From Candidatus Pacearchaeota archaeon (GTDB lineage: Archaea > Nanobdellota > Nanobdellia > Pacearchaeales > GW2011-AR1), in the NCBI GenBank assembly GCA_023139205.1, contig JAGLOA010000004.1, forward strand, positions 1 to 57,484: a stretch of DNA of 57,484 bases, given 5' to 3'. The notes under the pieces are model-generated. The model did no database searches. It saw only the letters and a program-made list of their open reading frames with translations, and was not told where the DNA came from. Positions within the stretch are counted from its first letter, which is position 1, and each line of letters begins with the position of its first letter. Below, piece by piece: positions 2,702 to 39,058 of this stretch. Both the position numbers and the translations under genes were made by a program.

Positions 2702-2908
2702 CTATCTTCTTTTTTTCTTAACAGCTTTTCTCTTTGCAGGCTTTCTCTTAACTGTCTTTCTTGTTACTTTTCTCTTAACAGTTCTTTTTACAGGTTTCTT
2801 CTTTTTTGCCACAACAGATTTTTTCTTAGCTGCTTCAAGTTTTTTAACTTGGTTCTTAAGAGATCTTATCTTAATATCAAGCTGTTTTGGTGTTCTAGCT
2901 TTTGCCAT
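2702..2908 (-). CDS. small, highly basic Lys/Arg-rich protein (histone H1-like composition)
   Basis: 68 aa with repeated KRTVKRK/KRKAVKK-type units. Confidence 0.6.
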   Translation of the reverse strand: MAKARTPKQLDIKIRSLKNQVKKLEAAKKKSVVAKKKKPVKRTVKRKVTRKTVKRKPAKRKAVKKKRR

Positions 2909-3012
2909 TTTTCACCTCTCTTTTTAATTAATTAAAACAAGAAACTAATATTTAAAAACTCTTCGGTGTGAAAAGGATTAAAAATTTTAAAAAAGAAAAC
3001 AGCTTCGACAAA

Positions 3013-4683
3013 TTACTTTGTTCTTGTATGGATTAATTTTCCAAATTTTTCAAAATTAATTTCTTCTTCAATTAATTTTTTCAAAACTTCTCTAAGATCA
3101 GAAATTTTAACACGAATTTGTTGAGTTGTATCACGAAATCTTATTGTGACATCTTTCTTTTTATCTGAATCCCCGTCAATAGTTATACAATAAGGAGTTC
3201 CTATTTCATCATTACGCGCATATCTTCTTCCAATACTTCCAGATTTATCATAACAAACATTCCAATCTTTTTTCAATTCATAAACAATATCCTCTGCGAT
3301 CTTTTCAAATTTTTTCTGTTTGATAATTGGAAATACTGCTGCTTTTATTGGAGCAAGTTTAGCAGGAATTTTTAAAACAACATTTTTTCTTTTTTCATCA
3401 TAACAATATGAATTTGCTAAAACAGCTAAAAAAATTCTTTCCATCCCAAAAGTTGGTTCAATAACCCTTGGCAAAACTTTTTTTCCATATTTCTCGTCGA
3501 ATATTTCCAAATTTTGTTTGCTTTCATCTTGATGTTGAGTTAAATCAAATTGTCCCCTATTAGCATTCCCTGCAACTTCTTTGCTTCCAAAAGGATATTC
3601 ATAATCAATATCAAAAGTTGCAGAAGAATAATGGGAAAGTTCATCTTTAGTATGTTCTCTAATCTTAATATTATTCAAATTCAAACCTCTAAACCACAAA
3701 ATTTGTTCTGCAAGCCAATAAGCATGCCACTCTCCTAATTTATTTTTTTCTAAAAGTTCTTTTATTGTAATTTCTTTTAAATCTTGCTTTCCTTTATTTT
3801 GAGTTTCTTCGTCTAAAAATTTAAATTTACAATTTAAATGCCTAGAAGTTAATAAATCACATTTTTTTTCTTCAGGATTAATAAAAAATTCAAACTCTCC
3901 AATATGAAATTCCCTGCTCCTAAATAAGAAATCTCTTGGAGCAATCTCATTTCTAAAACATCTCCCAATTTGTGCAATTCCAAAAGGCAATTGCATTCTG
4001 GAAGTTTGCTGGACTAATTTAAAATTCATAAACATAGATTGAGCAGTTTCTCCTCGAAGATATGATTTAACAGACTCCAAAGCTCCAATAGTTGTCTCAA
4101 ACATTAAATTAAAATCACCTCTAACCTCATAATCTCCACCACACTCACATTTAACTTTCCCTTCCTCAGATTTATCAATCTTTGTCGCTTTTTTACATTT
4201 TTTACAAACAACAGCAAGATCAGAAAAATTTTCTAAATGTCCTGAAGCTTTCCAGGTTCGAGGATGAGAAATAATACTCGCCTCAATTCCAACAACATTA
4301 TCTTTTTTCCTCACAAAAAAATTCCACCAATTATCTTTAATATTCTTAAACAACTCTATCCCAAAAGGACCAAAATCCCAAAAACCAGAAAACCCCCCAT
4401 AAACATCACTAGATCTAAAAACAAATCCTTTTCTTTTACAAAAACTAGCTAAATCTTCAATTGAAATTTTCTCTCTCTTTAGTTCAACAACAGATTTATC
4501 CACAGAATTTTTTGTTTCTTCTTTTCTCCCCTCAAGAATATCTTTTGCTTTTTTCTCAGCTTCTTTTTTTTCTTTTCCAAGATAAGCAAGAGTTTTTGTT
4601 TTTACTTTTCCTTCAACTCTTTTATTTTCATTAAGATAATAATAATCATTCCCATGAATTTTTTTCTTAACAACAAAAGCCAT
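3013..4683 (-). CDS. glyS: glycyl-tRNA synthetase (alpha2 type) with extra N-terminal domain
   Basis: KRKGFV...YGGFSGFWDFGPFG, LRGETAQSMF, GIAQIGRCFRNEI.PR.FLFRSREF, VIEPTFG, GSIGRRYARNDEIGTP; start placed at ATG 4683 (MAFVV). Confidence 0.95.
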   Translation of the reverse strand: MAFVVKKKIHGNDYYYLNENKRVEGKVKTKTLAYLGKEKKEAEKKAKDILEGRKEETKNSVDKSVVELKREKISIEDLASFCKRKGFVFRSSDVYGGFSGFWDFGPFGIELFKNIKDNWWNFFVRKKDNVVGIEASIISHPRTWKASGHLENFSDLAVVCKKCKKATKIDKSEEGKVKCECGGDYEVRGDFNLMFETTIGALESVKSYLRGETAQSMFMNFKLVQQTSRMQLPFGIAQIGRCFRNEIAPRDFLFRSREFHIGEFEFFINPEEKKCDLLTSRHLNCKFKFLDEETQNKGKQDLKEITIKELLEKNKLGEWHAYWLAEQILWFRGLNLNNIKIREHTKDELSHYSSATFDIDYEYPFGSKEVAGNANRGQFDLTQHQDESKQNLEIFDEKYGKKVLPRVIEPTFGMERIFLAVLANSYCYDEKRKNVVLKIPAKLAPIKAAVFPIIKQKKFEKIAEDIVYELKKDWNVCYDKSGSIGRRYARNDEIGTPYCITIDGDSDKKKDVTIRFRDTTQQIRVKISDLREVLKKLIEEEINFEKFGKLIHTRTK

Positions 4684-24622: not shown

Positions 24623-25795
24623 ATGTTTAAATTTTTAAAAGATAAAATAGGAAAATGGGCAAAAAAAGTCTCTGAAAAAACAGAAATAAAAGAAAAACCA
24701 AAAGAAATAGAAACTCCTGTAAAAATAAATCTAAAAGAACAGACATCTAAACAAGATTTAGAAAAAGAAATTAATGAAAAAAAAGTTGAAACTAAAAAAG
24801 AAGTTAAAATTCCTGTAAAATTTAATGCAGGAACACATGCATATGAACCAGATTTAGAAAAGTTAGAAGAAATCAAAAAAGAAGAAGAAACCCCCGAACC
24901 AGGAAAAAAAGGATTTTTCAAAAAAATAACTTCAAAAATAAACAAGGTAAAAATTTCTGAAAAAGAATTTGAAGTTTATTCTGAAGAACTTGAAATGTTG
25001 CTTTTAGAAAATAACGTAGCTTTAGAAGTAGCAGAAAAAATGATTAAAGAATTAAAAGAAAAAATAATCGGAAAAGAACTTTTGAAAAAAGAAGTTGAAG
25101 GAGAAATAAAAGATTGTTTCAAAGAAATAATTGAAGAAATTTTAATAGATCCTTTTGATTTAGTTGAAAAAATTAAAGAGAAAATCTCTAACCAAAAAAA
25201 AGACCCTTATGTGATTTTATTTTGTGGGATAAATGGGACAGGAAAAACAACAACATTGGCTAAAATTGCAGATTCTTTAAAAAGTAAAAAAATTTCTTGT
25301 GTAATTGCTGCAGCAGACACTTTTAGAGCAGCCTCAATAGAACAAATAAAAGAACATGGAGAAAAAATAGGAGTAAAAGTTGTGTCTCAAGAATATGGTT
25401 CTGACCCTGCAGCAGTAGGATTTGATGCAATAAAATATGCAAAAAAGAATTTCATAAATTGCGTTTTAATTGATACAGCCGGAAGAATGCACACTTCAAA
25501 AAACTTGTTAAAAGAAATTGAAAAAATTTCAAGAGTCTGCAAACCAGATACAAAAATATTCGTTGGGGAAAGTATAACTGGAAATGATGTTATAGAACAG
25601 GCAAAAAGTTTTGACTGGGAAATTGGAATTGACGGAGTGGTCTTAACAAAAGCAGATATTGATGAAAAAGGCGGCACAGCTTTGTCAGTAGGTTATATAA
25701 CAAAAAAACCAATTCTTTATTTAGGTACAGGTCAGGCCTATGACAAGATAGAACCCTTTGACAAGCAAAAATTCATAGAAAAATTAGGATTGTGA
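24623..25795 (+). CDS. ftsY: SRP receptor FtsY
   Basis: GINGTGKTTT, AADTFRAA, DTAGRM, TKAD.D.KGG, GTGQ.Y; K/E-rich N-terminal region. Confidence 0.95.
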   Translation: MFKFLKDKIGKWAKKVSEKTEIKEKPKEIETPVKINLKEQTSKQDLEKEINEKKVETKKEVKIPVKFNAGTHAYEPDLEKLEEIKKEEETPEPGKKGFFKKITSKINKVKISEKEFEVYSEELEMLLLENNVALEVAEKMIKELKEKIIGKELLKKEVEGEIKDCFKEIIEEILIDPFDLVEKIKEKISNQKKDPYVILFCGINGTGKTTTLAKIADSLKSKKISCVIAAADTFRAASIEQIKEHGEKIGVKVVSQEYGSDPAAVGFDAIKYAKKNFINCVLIDTAGRMHTSKNLLKEIEKISRVCKPDTKIFVGESITGNDVIEQAKSFDWEIGIDGVVLTKADIDEKGGTALSVGYITKKPILYLGTGQAYDKIEPFDKQKFIEKLGL

Positions 25796-25933
25796 ATTTT
25801 TGTGCAGTCTATATGATTTCTCCAGAGGAAATTGGAAATCACCGTTCAGTGTTTTGGGGGAAGGTTCTAAAGGAAACCAGCCGGTTTCTTTTATTTTGAC
25901 AAACAAAAGTTCATAGAAAAACTTGGATTATGA
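25757..25933. mobile_element. 99-nt hairpin module flanked by synonymously recoded copies of the ftsY 3' end
   Basis: 25757-25795 and 25895-25933 both encode FDKQKFIEKLGL*; 34/39 nt identical, all 5 differences synonymous. Confidence 0.8.
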
Positions 25934-29089: not shown

Positions 29090-29128
29090 AAAGATTATTT
29101 TTAAAATTATAAAAAGTTTAATTTTTAT

Positions 29129-29695
29129 TTATGCTTCATATGTTATTGTTATCCAACCCCGATTATAAGGATCATCATATTCTTCAGAATCAAAATTAGA
29201 ATTCTCAAAAAATCCTCCTGTGAATCTACTTATTAAAATACGATTACTAGTAGTATCTCCAATAGATCCACCTTTCGTTAGCTCAACACTATCACCCAAT
29301 AAAATCGGATAAATCCTAGTATTAGCATCATCTCTTATTATAACGTCTATACTTCTAATTTTAAAATAATTAACCCCAAGCCCATGATCAACCCCCGAAC
29401 CAAATGAAGAAACCATATTCCAATCACCAATTTCAATAACTTTTGTTTTCAAAACAATATTATCTGTTTTTATCCCATCATTGAAAACAGCAACTCCATC
29501 AACTCCCCCACTTAAATCAAGTTCTTCAGCACTATGTCCTACAACAGAAGCAGGTCCTCCAGAGTTATAAGCATAAACTCCAACACCAACTACAGCTAAA
29601 ACTCCAATTACAATCAAAGTATAAAACAATCTGTTAGAAAAATTTATCTGAAGTTTTCCTATTTTAATTTTCTTCACCATCTTTATTAAAAACAT
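29129..29695 (-). CDS. membrane-anchored hypothetical protein
   Basis: N-terminal TM (LFYTLIVIGVLAVVGVGVYA) followed by a beta-rich domain. Confidence 0.6.
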   Translation of the reverse strand: MFLIKMVKKIKIGKLQINFSNRLFYTLIVIGVLAVVGVGVYAYNSGGPASVVGHSAEELDLSGGVDGVAVFNDGIKTDNIVLKTKVIEIGDWNMVSSFGSGVDHGLGVNYFKIRSIDVIIRDDANTRIYPILLGDSVELTKGGSIGDTTSNRILISRFTGGFFENSNFDSEEYDDPYNRGWITITYEA

Positions 29696-29712
29696 TAAAG
29701 AATTGTTCTTTT

Positions 29713-30066
29713 TTAAATATTCCTCTCATCTAAAAAATCTTTAAATTCCTTCTTCAACCATTGTTCACATTTCTCTAAATATTTAGGAGAACTCTTTCCT
29801 GAATCATTCAAAATAAATAAATCTTCATTACAACCATAAGGAGATGGAGAACTTTCATAAAGCAAATAAACATCACTTTCTACATGAAATTTTATATGTT
29901 CACTCTTTTCTTTTAAAGAAGGATATGAAACAACCCCTAATTCCCCAGAATTAATTAATTTATTTAACCTTTTTTCTAAAGCCGAATTTGGATTGTCTTT
30001 TGAACCTATATGTCCCTGATAAGCTATAACTCTCTTCTTGATCATATCTCCATTAAATAAACTCAT
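29713..30066 (-). CDS. hypothetical protein
   Basis: 117-aa ORF, no recognised motif. Confidence 0.55.
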   Translation of the reverse strand: MSLFNGDMIKKRVIAYQGHIGSKDNPNSALEKRLNKLINSGELGVVSYPSLKEKSEHIKFHVESDVYLLYESSPSPYGCNEDLFILNDSGKSSPKYLEKCEQWLKKEFKDFLDERNI

Positions 30067-30119
30067 GAATATAAGAAAATAACTAAGTTTTTAAGCAAAT
30101 CCCTATTCAAGAATATATA

Positions 30120-30554
30120 TTAAATTTTTAGCCTTTTTTTAAGAGCTTCTAAGAAAAAACTTGGAATAGATATTGGTTCTTCTTTTGAAACATCAACAAA
30201 AAGATCTTGTGTTTGTGCAGTAAAAACTAATTCCTGAGAATCATTAAAAAACTGAAAATCCATTTGAAAAAAAGGATTCTTAATTTTAGTTATCTTTAAA
30301 TCAACCTTAAAATTATCTCCATACTTCAAAGATCTTCTGTAAGTAAGATCAAAAAATCTTCTCCTTGTATAAGCAATGTTTTTCTCTTTCCTAAAAAATG
30401 CATCACTCCAACCAAACTGCTTTAAAAATTCTGCCCGAACATACTCACAATATTGAAAATAATCTGCATTATTAAGATGTTCATTACGATCGTTTTTATG
30501 AGATACTTCCAAGTTAAAACTACCTTCATAAAGCAATTCCCCTAATTCTTTCAT
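30120..30554 (-). CDS. acyl-CoA thioesterase, 4HBT/YbgC hot-dog family
   Basis: DRNEHLNNADYFQYCEYVR resembles the DxxGHVNNxxYxxYxExxR motif. Confidence 0.8.
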   Translation of the reverse strand: MKELGELLYEGSFNLEVSHKNDRNEHLNNADYFQYCEYVRAEFLKQFGWSDAFFRKEKNIAYTRRRFFDLTYRRSLKYGDNFKVDLKITKIKNPFFQMDFQFFNDSQELVFTAQTQDLFVDVSKEEPISIPSFFLEALKKRLKI

Positions 30555-30642
30555 AATAAATTTGTAAAATAAAAGTTTTTAAGTTTTATTATATTCAAAA
30601 TAAAATCAATAATCTTATAAATAAAAAAGAACAAGAAAAACT

Positions 30643-30849
30643 ATGGAAATAAAAATAATTTTAGAAGAGCAAAAAGAAGGAGGATACACAACTTATGTGC
30701 CTTCTTTGCCAGGATGCACCTCCCAGGGAGAAACAATTGAAGGAGCACTAAAAAACATTAAAGAAGCAATTGAATTATATCTAGAAGCAGATGAAAATGA
30801 ACTTATTATTTACAAAGACAATGTAAAAACAGAAACAATCACAATATGA
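30643..30849 (+). CDS. hicB: HicB family antitoxin
   Basis: EGGYTTYVPSLPGCTSQGETIEGALKNIKEAIELYLE. Confidence 0.9.
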   Translation: MEIKIILEEQKEGGYTTYVPSLPGCTSQGETIEGALKNIKEAIELYLEADENELIIYKDNVKTETITI

Positions 30850-31064
30850 AAATTCCTCAGATTTCTGGAAAAGAATTAATAAAAAAACTGCGTAAATTTG
30901 GTTTTGTTGTGACAAGGCAAAAAGGTTCTCATATAAGATTAGAAAAAAACACTGAAAACAAAACCATCAAAATCACAATCCCCAACCACCAAATTCTCAA
31001 AAAAGGAACTTTAAACCAAATCATTAAATCAATAGGGTTAACTGCTGAGGAAATTTTTTCTTGA
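30846..31064 (+). CDS. hicA: HicA family toxin (mRNA interferase)
   Basis: ISGKELIKKLRKFGF...RQKGSHIRL...IPNHQILKKGTL; ATGA overlap with hicB. Confidence 0.9.
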   Translation: MKIPQISGKELIKKLRKFGFVVTRQKGSHIRLEKNTENKTIKITIPNHQILKKGTLNQIIKSIGLTAEEIFS

Positions 31065-31124
31065 ATAAAATGAGCCAAAAGCAAATGATGAAATTTATAA
31101 AAAGTAAAAAAATTAAGTTTTAAG

Positions 31125-31580
31125 ATGAACCGAAAAGAAAAGTTAGATTGGTATAAAGAAGAATTTGATAAGATTTGTAAAATTATTCACAACAAAAAAG
31201 AATTATCTTATCTTGATTTCTTAAGAATTAGAAATTTTAAATTACAAAATTCTACAATTGAAGAGGAAAAGAATATTAAAGAGATTACATCTAAAGCATT
31301 TGAATTAGCAAAAAAAGATAAAATTGAAGGATCAATAAAAGAATTGCTCAAATTAAATGGTGTAGCCATACCCATTGCATCTACAATTCTTGCTATGAAA
31401 TTTCCAGAAAAATATGCTATAATTGACAGAAGAGTTATAAAACAATTAAACAAACCCGAATGGATGAAAGATTATTTAAAAAATCCAAAAACTTACAAGG
31501 AATATATTTTAGCAATGAGAAAAACCAAACCTATCAATTTATCTTTAAGAGATTATGAAAGGAGTTTATTTGAAAAATGA
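31125..31580 (+). CDS. hypothetical protein with HhH-like motif
   Basis: LLKLNGVAIPIASTIL...YAIIDRRV resembles a helix-hairpin-helix followed by D, as in HhH-GPD glycosylases. Confidence 0.55.
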   Translation: MNRKEKLDWYKEEFDKICKIIHNKKELSYLDFLRIRNFKLQNSTIEEEKNIKEITSKAFELAKKDKIEGSIKELLKLNGVAIPIASTILAMKFPEKYAIIDRRVIKQLNKPEWMKDYLKNPKTYKEYILAMRKTKPINLSLRDYERSLFEK

Positions 31581-32272
31581 CATCACAAAAAAATTGTTTG
31601 CATGTGGCATCCATCGGAGGCAATTAAAAGATGCCACCGTTCAGTGCTTCGAGGAGAGAGCGCGAGAGAAATCAACGGGTTCTCTCGCAGGGTGCAGAAG
31701 CAAAAATAATTCTTTCAGGAAATTCAATCATAAAAGATAGAATAAAAAAATCATACAGAATCCCAGAACTTGATGAAAAAATTAGAAAATTAAGAACTCG
31801 TTCAGAAACAAAACTTCTTACAAAAGCATCTGAAATAATTAATTGTCCTAAACCTCAAGAACTAAAAGAATTTGATAAAATAAAAATGCCTTTTATCGAC
31901 GGCAAAAAACTTTCAGAACATTTAGATAACTTTCCCTTAAAACAACAAAAACAAATTTGCAATCAACTTGGAGAAGCAATTGCAAAACTTCACGACAATA
32001 ATATAATTCATGGAGATTTAACAACATCAAATATGATTCTAAAAAATGAAGAAGTTTATTTTATTGATTTCGGATTAGGATTTATAAGTCACAAATATGA
32101 AGACAAAGCAGTTGATTTGCATTTACTAAAACAAGCCTTAGAAGCAAAACATTTTCAAAATTACAAAGAACTTTTAAAAGAAGTTTTCAAAGCCTATAAA
32201 AAATCCAAAGACTCTAAAATTGTTTTTGAAAGATTAAAGGCAGTTGAAAAAAGAGGCAGATATAAACACTAA
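31577..32272 (+). CDS. bud32: KEOPS kinase Bud32, 5' end interrupted by a structured insert
   Basis: QGAEA, K.RIKKSYR..ELD..IR..RT..E, IIHGDLTTSNMI, IDFGLG, EDKAVDL; ATG 31577 overlaps upstream stop (ATGA) but in-frame TAA at 31625; alternative ATG at 31631. Confidence 0.9.
31592..31688. mobile_element. hairpin module homologous to the ftsY insert
   Basis: TGGCATC/GATGCCA stem, then CCGTTCAGTG, then GCGAGAGAA/TTCTCTCGC hairpin; same layout as 25796-25894. Confidence 0.75.
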
Positions 32273-33069: not shown

Positions 33070-33182
33070 AATAGCTCCTCCAGGATCCTCGAAGAGGTCT
33101 TGTCCCTCCTTGGGATTCTCGTGCTGGGAGCATTAGCGAGGCAATATCGAACCTTGGTTCGAATCAATAGCCCCACCAGGAT
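33070..33182. mobile_element. short multi-hairpin insert flanked by duplicated tRNA-Gln 3' end
   Basis: Minus strand ATCCTGGTGGGGCTATT (tRNA end) vs ATCCTGGAGGAGCTATT 96 nt downstream; four short hairpins between them. Confidence 0.65.
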
Positions 33183-33292
33183 TCGAACCTGGGTCCCAGC
33201 CTTACTTCAAGCTCCAAAGGAATTGGAGTAATGAAAGATGCAAGCATCTTACTTTCAAAGGGCTGAATACTTGACCACTGTACTATGGGGCT
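33168..33292 (-). tRNA. tRNA-Gln(TTG) with 52-nt intron at 37/38 (33203-33254)
   Basis: AGCCCCA/TGGGGCT acceptor, CAGCC-CTTTGA[intron]A-GGCTG, CCAGG-TTCGAAT-CCTGG; CTTT pairs with intron GAAG as a BHB-like central helix. Confidence 0.88.
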
Positions 33293-37845: not shown

Positions 37846-39058
37846 ATAAAGTTGATTGCTGTTCTCCTAATAAAGCTTCTCCATATTCTCCATCATAACC
37901 AGGTTTTACTTTTATTTTTTGTTGCCTGTTTTTTATAATTAAATTTGCTAGTTTATCGTCGACATTTTCGCTTAATAATTCCTCTTTTGAAACATTTAGT
38001 AAAATATTAAATTCATTTTCAAATTCTTTTATCAAATTATTATAAACATCCCAAACTTTTTTACTTTGCATATTAAATCCAAAACATAAAGAAATTATTT
38101 CATGTAAAGGTAAAAGCTTGTGGAAAGGTTTTTCGTTTTTTGCTTTAAATCCAATAGGATTTTCTGCAAGTTGTTCTACCCTGTTATCCACTCCAATTGT
38201 TAAAGGTTTTTTACAAACAGGACAAATCCCATTAAGCTCTTTTGTTTTTTCAGGGCTGCAAGAAAAATTACAATTTCTATGCCCATCCCAATGATACTTT
38301 CCATACGCAGGTTCTGTTTCAATTGTTCCAATAAAATCATTTCCCCTAATTTGTTCTATAATCTCTTTAAATGAATCACATTTCTTAAAAATCGTTGCTT
38401 CTCTTCCTAATCTAAAAGGCCAAAAACTATGTGCATCTGAAAAACTTACAATAGCTTTATTTTCTAACTCCTTTATTCTCCAGTTCATTTCAGGGTCAGA
38501 TGAAATCCCTGTTTCAATTGCATGAACATTTTCAAATTGCTCCTTAAAACATTCCTTTAAACTATCAAAACCAGACATACTCCCAAAAACTCCAAACCAG
38601 GGGGTCCAAATATGCGCAGGGATTATTTCAATCTCAGTTGATATTTTCATCATCTTTCTAACAAACTCGTCTCCAGGAAGCTTAAAAATAGGCCTGCCAT
38701 CATAATCTCGCCTACCTTGAGTATCTAAATAAGAATTAATTTTCTCAGCAATTTCAATACTTGGGACCAATAAAACCAAATGAATTCTTCTGCCTCTTCC
38801 TTGAGTATACATCAAAGAAATCTCCCCAGTAATTATAAAAGGGAAATCATTCAAATAATAAAATCCTTTCCCATTACTCTTAAGCTTTTTTATTTCCTCC
38901 AACCAAACAGGATGAGTAAAATCTCCTGTTCCCAACAAATTAAGACCCTTAATCTTTGCCCACTTAGCTAAGTTTTCAAAATCGATATTTTTACTGCATG
39001 CTCTGGAAAATCGAGAATGTATATGAAAATCCCCAATCATCCAATTTTTTATATCCAT
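37838..39058 (-). CDS. PHP-domain protein with zinc finger (TIGR00375 / endonuclease Q-like)
   Basis: GDFHIHSRFSRACS, GTGDFTHP, PAHIWTPWFG, ETGISSDP, SFSDAHS, GKYHWDGHR.C, CPVCKKPLTIGV, PGYDGEYG. Confidence 0.85.
   Translation of the reverse strand: MDIKNWMIGDFHIHSRFSRACSKNIDFENLAKWAKIKGLNLLGTGDFTHPVWLEEIKKLKSNGKGFYYLNDFPFIITGEISLMYTQGRGRRIHLVLLVPSIEIAEKINSYLDTQGRRDYDGRPIFKLPGDEFVRKMMKISTEIEIIPAHIWTPWFGVFGSMSGFDSLKECFKEQFENVHAIETGISSDPEMNWRIKELENKAIVSFSDAHSFWPFRLGREATIFKKCDSFKEIIEQIRGNDFIGTIETEPAYGKYHWDGHRNCNFSCSPEKTKELNGICPVCKKPLTIGVDNRVEQLAENPIGFKAKNEKPFHKLLPLHEIISLCFGFNMQSKKVWDVYNNLIKEFENEFNILLNVSKEELLSENVDDKLANLIIKNRQQKIKVKPGYDGEYGEALLGEQQSTLFS

Follow-up and report, generated by a model that had tools for sequence, protein, structure and literature searches.

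How is a gene translated when a structured element has split its start and placed a stop codon in its reading frame? This question is raised by bud32 in a 57,484-nt stretch of DNA (contig JAGLOA010000004.1 of assembly GCA_023139205.1; this whole stretch is called the window hereafter) from a Candidatus Pacearchaeota archaeon. Bud32 is part of KEOPS, the maker of the universal tRNA modification N6-threonylcarbamoyladenosine (t6A). A first-pass annotation of the window had proposed that the start of its gene is split by an element that is either an mRNA intron or the donor of a new N-terminus. We find that the start is indeed split, and that the element is one member of a family of structured elements found in DPANN archaea. 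Reading from the genomic sequence, we give a probability of about 0.6 to the interpretation that the element is retained in the bud32 mRNA and that translation restarts at ATG 31631, which would give Bud32 an element-encoded N-terminus.

The start of bud32 carries an insertion

The window is AT-rich (31% GC), and positions 31595-31712 are among its strongest GC islands, comparable to tRNA genes and peaking at 60%. The 213-residue open reading frame (ORF) that begins in this island contains Pfam RIO1 and Pkinase domains, and its best matches are Kae1-associated kinases (Bud32) of Pacearchaeota. It is homologous to the solved structures 2VWB, 3EN9 and 8UNK (E about 1e-31) and has all invariant residues of the RIO-type kinase fold, including the GAEA, HGDLTTSN and DFG motifs. 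With a ratio of nonsynonymous to synonymous substitution rates (dN/dS) of 0.185 against an element-free relative (locus L138), the gene body is under purifying selection.

Only 6-11 residues stand ahead of GAEA in 104 of 120 Bud32 homologues. The two closest element-free relatives, at 81% identity, start MTSQKILCQGAEA and MTQKILCQGAEA, and the N-termini of the insert-free closest relatives read MTSQKILCQGAEAKII (protein P0003) and MTQKILCQGAEAKII (P0002). These starts match the MTSQK encoded upstream of the GC island, indicating that MTSQK is the native start and that bud32 carries an insertion. The first-pass annotation had held that an MPPF-type N-terminus in element-free relatives would speak against its interpretation; the relatives have MTSQK-type starts, a comparison that shows insertion and does not separate splicing from donation of a start. 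The residual native 5' end, together with AG at 31689-31690, would complete the Gln codon that precedes GAEA, and deletion of 31602-31688 yields MTSQKNCLQGAEAKII, equal in length to the P0003 N-terminus.

The 87-nt length and the restoration of the frame had been predicted correctly, for a removal placed at 31592-31678. Any 87-nt deletion between 31592 and 31688 restores the frame, and comparison of about 30 family copies in different host genes moves the removed segment to 31602-31688, with a 3' end at ...CTCTCGC (31688) and a 5' end 2 nt before the first hairpin, P1. Because the sequence past ...CTCTCGC differs with every host, the element ends at 31688. The covariance-model match to the window element covers 31593-31690 (101.5 bits). 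TTCTCTCGC, which had been taken for the start of a second exon, belongs to the element by the same comparison and is the 3' arm of the P3 hairpin.

As previously described, ATG 31577 overlaps the stop codon of the upstream ORF, the unspliced frame ends at TAA 31625, and ATG 31631 reopens that same frame into the Bud32 ORF. Four assemblies made independently from different samples agree exactly at this locus and its in-frame TAA, which rules out an assembly error as the source of the stop. TAA is also the ordinary stop codon of several ORFs around bud32.

The element has a conserved hairpin and pseudoknot

The structure of the element was derived from an alignment of 24 copies. In P1, which is 99.5% paired, 6 of the 8 pairs show compensatory changes. 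P2 was first noticed in a relative (L040) as CCTTT/AAAGG; two of its four pairs are compensatory, with CG, GC, UA and UG types, and since its 3' strand lies inside the P3 loop, P2 and P3 form a pseudoknot. The complementarity pointed out in the first-pass annotation, between GCGAGAGAA and TTCTCTCGC, is perfect and constitutes P3, which is near-invariant (no compensatory changes, one G-U pair and 8 unpaired cells) and is fully compensated, as TAAAGGAAA/TTTCTTTTA, in a divergent window copy that follows ftsY. Overall, 97.4% of cells are paired; the observed covariation score was reached by none of 500 shuffles, and no slid register came near it.

The P1 loops of the family carry GGAGG or (A/G)AGGTG. 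The 18-nt loop of the window copy is the family consensus, GGAGGCAATTAAAAG, and is identical to that of L095; it holds GGAGG at 31617-31621 and, in the bud32 frame, yields the TAA, while the loop of the orthologous L099 copy has diverged and is open. A search of Rfam 15 gave no match with E <= 10 in 31400-31900, except for a chance small-RNA match outside the element, and at eight copy-bearing loci it gave tRNA and 5S matches only. An internal helix, GUGCU/AGCGC, was rejected for its variable positions without covariation in the alignment. Small ribozymes (hammerhead, twister, pistol and HDV-like) were likewise rejected, their core motifs being absent by eye and Rfam giving no match. The copies are read in different frames, and thus the element does not encode a small conserved protein.

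The element belongs to a family that appears mobile

Genome and metagenome collections were scanned with the DNA motif AGGARAGWGCGCGAGAGAAA and later with the covariance model. We observed about 30 non-identical copies at about 20 distinct insertion sites, and all true ones lie in AT-rich DPANN contigs, labelled Pace-, Woese- or Nanoarchaeota; motif matches in GC-rich contigs were judged to be chance. The covariance model recovered further divergent copies, including a second one in the window that exact and 3-mismatch searches and blastn-short had all missed. Its weak match at 38935-39025 on the minus strand lies inside an ordinary coding region and was dismissed. The element itself is about 83, 84 or 85 nt long across the family.

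In bud32, copies always split the Gln codon C|AR that precedes GAEA. The same element occupies this site in L031 and L040, two GTDB species representatives whose Bud32 proteins are about 70% identical to that of the window, and same-codon elements occur in genes that are only 55-71% identical at the protein level. Third positions all differ in the adjacent GAEA codons, whereas 96-98% identity is kept over the 3' 56 nt of the element; the constraint therefore acts on nucleotides. Across hosts and frames, the element core is 80-98% identical to the window copy; the identity of the bud32 coding sequences is 72-77%. Elsewhere, copies lie in the middle of PCMT, at two sites in PolB, at the N-terminus of a metallophosphoesterase, and directly ahead of the start codons of SRP54, PheT, aEF-1beta, S3Ae, Spt4 and others. 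For the 11 copies placed before a start codon, the conserved sequence of the element runs exactly up to that codon. All but one of about 33 copies inspected (the exception is L051:653-752) are in sense orientation relative to the host or adjacent gene.

The nearest bud32 (L138, 82% nucleotide identity) has no element, while more distant bud32 genes have it. Likewise, L098 carries an element at PolB site 1 and L133 does not, and the reverse holds at site 2. Two copies within one metagenome-assembled genome are more alike than copies at the same site in other genomes. On this sequence evidence, the family appears mobile. Its ends, AT-GYGRC... and ...CTCTCGC, are not inverted repeats, and the element thus lacks terminal inverted repeats. 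Flanking repeats are either 0-3 nt (CA/GCA in bud32) or 11-36-nt duplicates of a gene end, with no target-site duplication of fixed length; insertion of the IS200/IS605 type was rejected for want of a constant 4-5-nt motif 5' of the element. The inserts, at about 70-100 nt, are too short to encode an integrase, and no recombinase gene was seen beside any copy, although neighbouring genes were not screened systematically. Our literature search found no description of such elements in DPANN, and the family is apparently an undescribed mobile element of these archaea.

Some copies are joined to gene ends. In the window, the divergent copy lies directly after the ftsY stop, and behind it the final 36 nt of ftsY occur a second time (11 codons and the stop; 25760-25795 and 25898-25933). 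Both ends encode DKQKFIEKLGL*, and their 6 differences in 36 positions are all synonymous; the same layout in L016:531-710 has 11 differences in 36, again all synonymous. Type-B copies, with a variant core and the P3 loop CTTGGTG, stand directly after tRNA genes (L091:1904-2070, L094, L113:1610-1770, L115, L132 and L136) in the order tRNA, element, and a 10-21-nt repeat of the tRNA 3' part from T-loop to discriminator. Such repeats are found in L091 and L094 (Gln), L113 (Val), L115 (Leu) and L132, and not at the bud32 copy. Type-B elements also carry a segment antisense to the T-arm, that is, to the repeated host sequence. L118 is another of the tRNA-associated type-B loci. At a further locus, the copy at L103:816-850 ends 1 nt before the 5' end of a tRNA-Gln. 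The ftsY and tRNA layouts indicate either that a unit integrates together with its own copy of the host gene end or that some form of precise excision takes place.

Proposed translation through the element and a new start

If the element is translated, insertions within genes should be visible in the reading frame. The host frame is kept in all 15 aligned mid-ORF copies (83-85 nt) at five sites, in bud32, PCMT, PolB (two sites) and the phosphoesterase; the length varies even among orthologous copies, and at least 8 independent trials of phase are represented. An in-frame stop is missing from 14 of the 15, but chance alone often leaves a frame open (19 of 27 frames in copies that abut a start codon), and we therefore discarded stop-free frames as uninformative about translation. 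Of the 7 non-identical bud32 copies, 6 can be read without a stop from the upstream ATG across the element. In the solved structures of PolB (2JGU) and PIMT (1JG1), the insertion sites correspond to 2-residue loops, which would gain 27-31 residues; as peptides the inserts are 27-29 residues long, have many R, E and S residues, and occupy loops or N-termini. It is the preserved frame that suggests that the host protein includes the translated insert. In M. jannaschii, the same N-terminus joins Bud32 to Kae1 in a fusion (2VWB, 3EN9), which makes an N-terminal extension of Bud32 structurally plausible.

For the window, we propose that a family element inserted into the Gln codon preceding GAEA and that it stays in the mRNA, where ribosomes would translate through it. 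In most relatives, the host ATG would be read in frame through the element into Bud32. In the window, ribosomes coupled from the upstream ORF through the ATGA overlap would translate a 16-codon mini-ORF, stop at TAA 31625, and begin again at ATG 31631, which follows 3 nt further on within the P1 3' strand. The predicted product is an active Bud32 with 19 element-derived N-terminal residues, MPPFSASRRERERNQRVLS, in which VLS from the element would replace the native I/L-I/L-x before QGAEA. We infer both the termination-reinitiation at 31631 and the tolerance of the N-terminal extension. The suggestion of the first-pass annotation that the element donates an N-terminus, in the manner of Rickettsia palindromic elements (RPEs), fits a consensus loop with an in-frame TAA and an in-frame ATG 3 nt later. 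GGAGG in the loop is 9 nt upstream of this ATG. In addition, 7 of the 9 type-A copies next to a start codon are crossed by an upstream ORF (uORF) whose ATG lies 98-107 nt upstream and which ends 4-19 nt past the host ATG, a layout that would be expected for termination-reinitiation. The features of the window on which these arguments draw are listed in Table 1.

Table 1. Positions of the bud32 element, its structural parts and associated features in the window
Feature	Position	Strand	Description
Divergent second family member	25796-25897	+	Directly after the ftsY stop; covariance model 29.5 bits, E 7e-6
Upstream ORF	31125-31580	+	151 aa; no Pfam family; TGA 31578-31580 overlaps ATG 31577-31579 (ATGA)
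Residual native bud32 5' end	31577-31601	+	ATG ACA TCA CAA AAA AAT TGT TTG C; MTSQK is the start of P0003/P0002; DNA comparison with L138 and L139
Mini-ORF MTSQKNCLHVASIGGN*	31577-31627	+	16 codons; stop TAA 31625-31627, 3 nt ahead of ATG 31631
Flank pairing	31597-31698	+	TTTGCAT (31597-31603) with GTGCAGA (31692-31698); window and L099 only; relaxed helix-bulge-helix (hBH) candidate whose central helix competes with P1/P3
Element	31602-31688	+	87 nt; AT, P1 hairpin and P2/P3 pseudoknot; phase 1 of Gln codon C|AG
P1 hairpin	31604-31637	+	GTGGCATC (31604-31611) pairs with GATGCCAC (31630-31637); 8 bp
Bud32 ORF as translatable from the genome	31631-32272	+	213 aa; first 19 residues MPPFSASRRERERNQRVLS element-encoded
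P2	31638-31677	+	CGTT (31638-31641) pairs with AACG (31674-31677); optional C31637-G31678; 4-5 bp
P3 hairpin	31662-31688	+	GCGAGAGAA (31662-31670) pairs with TTCTCTCGC (31680-31688); 9 bp, perfect complementarity
tRNA-Gln(TTG)	33168-33292	-	52-nt intron at the canonical position with a textbook bulge-helix-bulge (BHB); found by Rfam and BHB scanner, missed by ARAGORN

Alternative explanations

Several observations weigh against retention of the element and a restart at ATG 31631. Retention in the mRNA is itself deduced from DNA. No bud32 copy other than that of the window has an in-frame stop, so that this copy would be a departure if read-through is the norm, and ATG 31631 lies within the 3' strand of an 8-bp GC-rich stem. 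Motifs resembling a Shine-Dalgarno (SD) sequence occur 3-12 nt upstream of only 4 of the 34 long ORFs of the window, so GGAGG may not act as an SD, and the case for it as a proven SD is weakened. The 25-nt upstream remnant is exactly in phase with the gene body across 87 nt, a phase that reinitiation does not need. The ftsY duplicates in two species differ synonymously only, which is hard to explain unless the element and one copy are sometimes absent from RNA or DNA. Finally, pairing between the flanks is possible in the window (7 bp) and in L099 (6 bp), with P about 0.01, and these sequences allow a relaxed hBH. An intervening sequence that is cut from the bud32 pre-mRNA and followed by RtcB-type ligation, which we consider rather unlikely, would account for an 87-nt removal that restores a Bud32 N-terminus of exactly the length found in element-free relatives, with the upstream ATG and about 8 codons kept in phase. 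The near-uniform sense orientation and the covarying, conserved fold suggest action at the RNA level, both duplicated ftsY ends appear to be under coding selection, and the gene-end duplications at ftsY and tRNAs keep excision alive as a hypothesis. The machinery is presumably present, since the spliced tRNA-Gln intron with its BHB implies a splicing endonuclease and a ligase in the organism, and DPANN epsilon2 splicing endonucleases accept relaxed motifs (PMC5829648, PMC12397907). Excision might take one of two routes: a broad-specificity splicing endonuclease, of the kind that accepts hBH or HBh' motifs, acting on the relaxed hBH (4-bp central helix and 7-bp outer helix, the latter being the TTTGCAT/GTGCAGA flank helix with P about 0.007) would remove 81 nt, 31610-31690, giving MTSQKNCLHVAGAEA..., and a BHB-independent, structure-guided cut at the bases of P1 and P3 would remove 87 nt, 31602-31688, giving MTSQKNCLQGAEA... 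The predicted N-terminus is accordingly MTSQKNCLQGAEA... (or MTSQKVLSQGAEA...) under excision and MPPFSAS... under reinitiation. A canonical BHB, defined here as two 3-nt bulges with a 4-bp helix between them and flanking helices at both splice sites, is not conserved at the element junctions: a scanner validated by its recovery of the window tRNA-Gln intron, applied near the 3' end of 37 copies, gave 36 matches against 35.2 in shuffles, neither enriched nor conserved in position, which bears out the statement of the first-pass annotation that the junctions hold no clear BHB. The tRNA- and ftsY-linked copies have no consistent BHB motif either. The window has 16 relaxed in-frame candidates, where shuffles give 9.4 +/- 4.0. 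Flank pairing is missing from the rest of the family (mean 3.1 against 2.6 bp), and a conserved closing helix between exons was therefore not accepted as a family feature. To form, the central helix of the hBH has to open P1 and P3 (the best such fold has -27.4 kcal/mol, compared with -37.7 kcal/mol for the minimum free energy structure), and its product lacks the near-invariant Gln. Moreover, preservation of the frame in every mid-ORF copy is unnecessary for an efficiently spliced intron, and copies abutting start codons carry uORFs that run through them. With no canonical BHB, the frame kept throughout and nearly all bud32 copies open, the mRNA-intron alternative is unsupported. We regard as unlikely, too, that the family is a new archaeal intervening sequence, a hairpin-pseudoknot excised precisely and independently of BHB from RNA or single-stranded DNA (ssDNA) and moving with a copy of a host gene end, with the 87 nt of bud32 removed at least part of the time. 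Structure-guided excision of this kind would explain the synonymous-only divergence of the duplicated ftsY ends, the antisense segments that pair with duplicated host sequence, and the exact junctions at start codons and tRNA ends.

The conserved fold could instead be a cis-acting RNA or ssDNA module with a host function at gene starts, either a translation or coupling enhancer with an SD-like loop or an RNA-processing signal, and not primarily selfish; bud32 would still be read from ATG 31631. The P1-loop GGAGG or (A/G)AGGTG is complementary to the usual 16S rRNA 3' end and otherwise rare in the genome, and the strong sense-orientation bias fits such a module, as does element sequence that ends right at a start codon or 1 nt before a tRNA 5' end. 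However, PCMT and PolB carry this module mid-gene, where it has no start to serve, close relatives differ in whether they have it, and the gene-end duplications and the nested and inverted copies of L051 resemble insertion events; we find this explanation improbable. Very improbable is the proposal that bud32 is a young pseudogene, created by the insertion and the stop, or that it is expressed by recoding, through read-through of the TAA or ribosomal hopping from AAT 31622 to AAT 31670. The in-frame TAA is present, a matched in-frame AAT lies 48 nt downstream, and the stop comes directly after the take-off codon, an arrangement superficially like that of T4 gene 60. Against this, the gene body is intact in its dN/dS and its invariant residues, an in-frame ATG lies 3 nt past the stop, TAA is the ordinary stop of several nearby ORFs, relatives with the same element have neither the stop nor the matched codons, and several samples give one and the same sequence. 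The P1-loop AAT-TAA (31622-31627) and AAT at 31670-31672 mimic translational-bypass codons, and the resemblance is probably a coincidence.

Relation to known systems

RPEs are short structured repeats that lie in frame in unrelated, often essential genes and add a hydrophilic peptide at fold-compatible positions (PMC10969869). [quoted passage not shown] It differs from them in its DPANN archaeal hosts, its lack of an Rfam match, its shorter length (83-85 nt), and a fold that is a hairpin and pseudoknot with covariation rather than a long palindrome, without terminal inverted repeats. Nearly all of its copies have the sense orientation, many terminate exactly at start codons or adjoin tRNAs, and some are flanked by 11-36-nt host gene-end duplicates; translation, moreover, is here suggested by the frame. 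In the cbf5 gene of Crenarchaeota, a BHB intron interrupts an archaeal protein-coding gene of the RNA-modification machinery (PMC2738675). As in that case, a short, GC-rich, structured insert is patchy among relatives and its deletion restores a conserved protein (PMC2738675), but the bud32 element has no BHB at its junctions, keeps the frame in mid-ORF copies, occurs outside ORFs as well, and is found in DPANN rather than Crenarchaeota. We class the family with the in-frame intragenic repeats, as an archaeal form whose fold and junctions are unusual, and it conforms neither to a BHB intron nor to a classical MITE.

The duplication of a tRNA segment from T-loop to discriminator, or of the last 11 codons of ftsY, around an insert recalls integrative elements and their att sites (tRNA-3'-end att, integron attC and CTX-type attP), with which the element also shares a fixed orientation and a P1 that is conserved in structure rather than in sequence. 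Unlike those systems, the insert is only about 70-100 nt, the targets are many and different, and mid-gene copies have at most a 2-3-nt repeat. Termination-reinitiation coupling operates in archaea. The ATGA overlap and the TAA-AAG-ATG of the window, and the uORFs of other copies that end 4-19 nt past the host ATG, resemble known stop-start pairs, but the path of coupling proposed here runs through a mobile element.

The bud32 insertion illustrates how, in a minimal DPANN genome, an essential gene persists after its start has been colonised. Translation of the element would make it an archaeal counterpart of RPEs that supplies proteins with insertions, and its excision would represent a new intron or mobile-element mechanism. 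The element also misleads gene callers, as seen in the varying starts of Bud32 database products, and the family offers a testable system for translation starts and coupling in uncultivated DPANN archaea.

Other inserts and neighbouring genes

Three copies lie within 850 nt in L051:650-1500. One of them is antisense to a gene that starts MITYNDIYEA and is flanked by a perfect 29-nt duplicate of that gene start; another stands directly before the ATG of the first. The bud32 genes of other relatives carry different GC-rich in-frame inserts of 16-49 residues at other positions (L001:~700-865, protein P0053; L072:~2830-3000; P0050; P0027). The covariance model gave no match to the inserts of L001 and L072, which were compared as DNA, while P0050 and P0027 were compared as proteins only; these inserts may be further families of the same kind. 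In L005:~2930-3030 (P0091), bud32 has an N-terminal duplication, SKLIAQGA...SKLIAQGA, in which all 8 codons differ synonymously and about 24 nt lie between the copies, and this may be the footprint of a lost element.

Most gene starts in the window follow A/T-rich sequence, and several genes share an ATGA overlap with a neighbour, a pattern suggesting that leaderless initiation or coupling is the norm. About 2.5 kb (29090-31576) separate SRP54 from bud32 and contain three minus-strand ORFs, including a 4HBT thioesterase, as well as hicB/hicA and the 151-codon ORF upstream of bud32. The nearest relative, L138, lacks this block and has the stop codon of SRP54 right next to the ATG of bud32. A GH130 gene and ORF199 between ftsY and SRP54 are likewise extra relative to L138, and both extra blocks, ftsY-SRP54 and SRP54-bud32, border an element copy.

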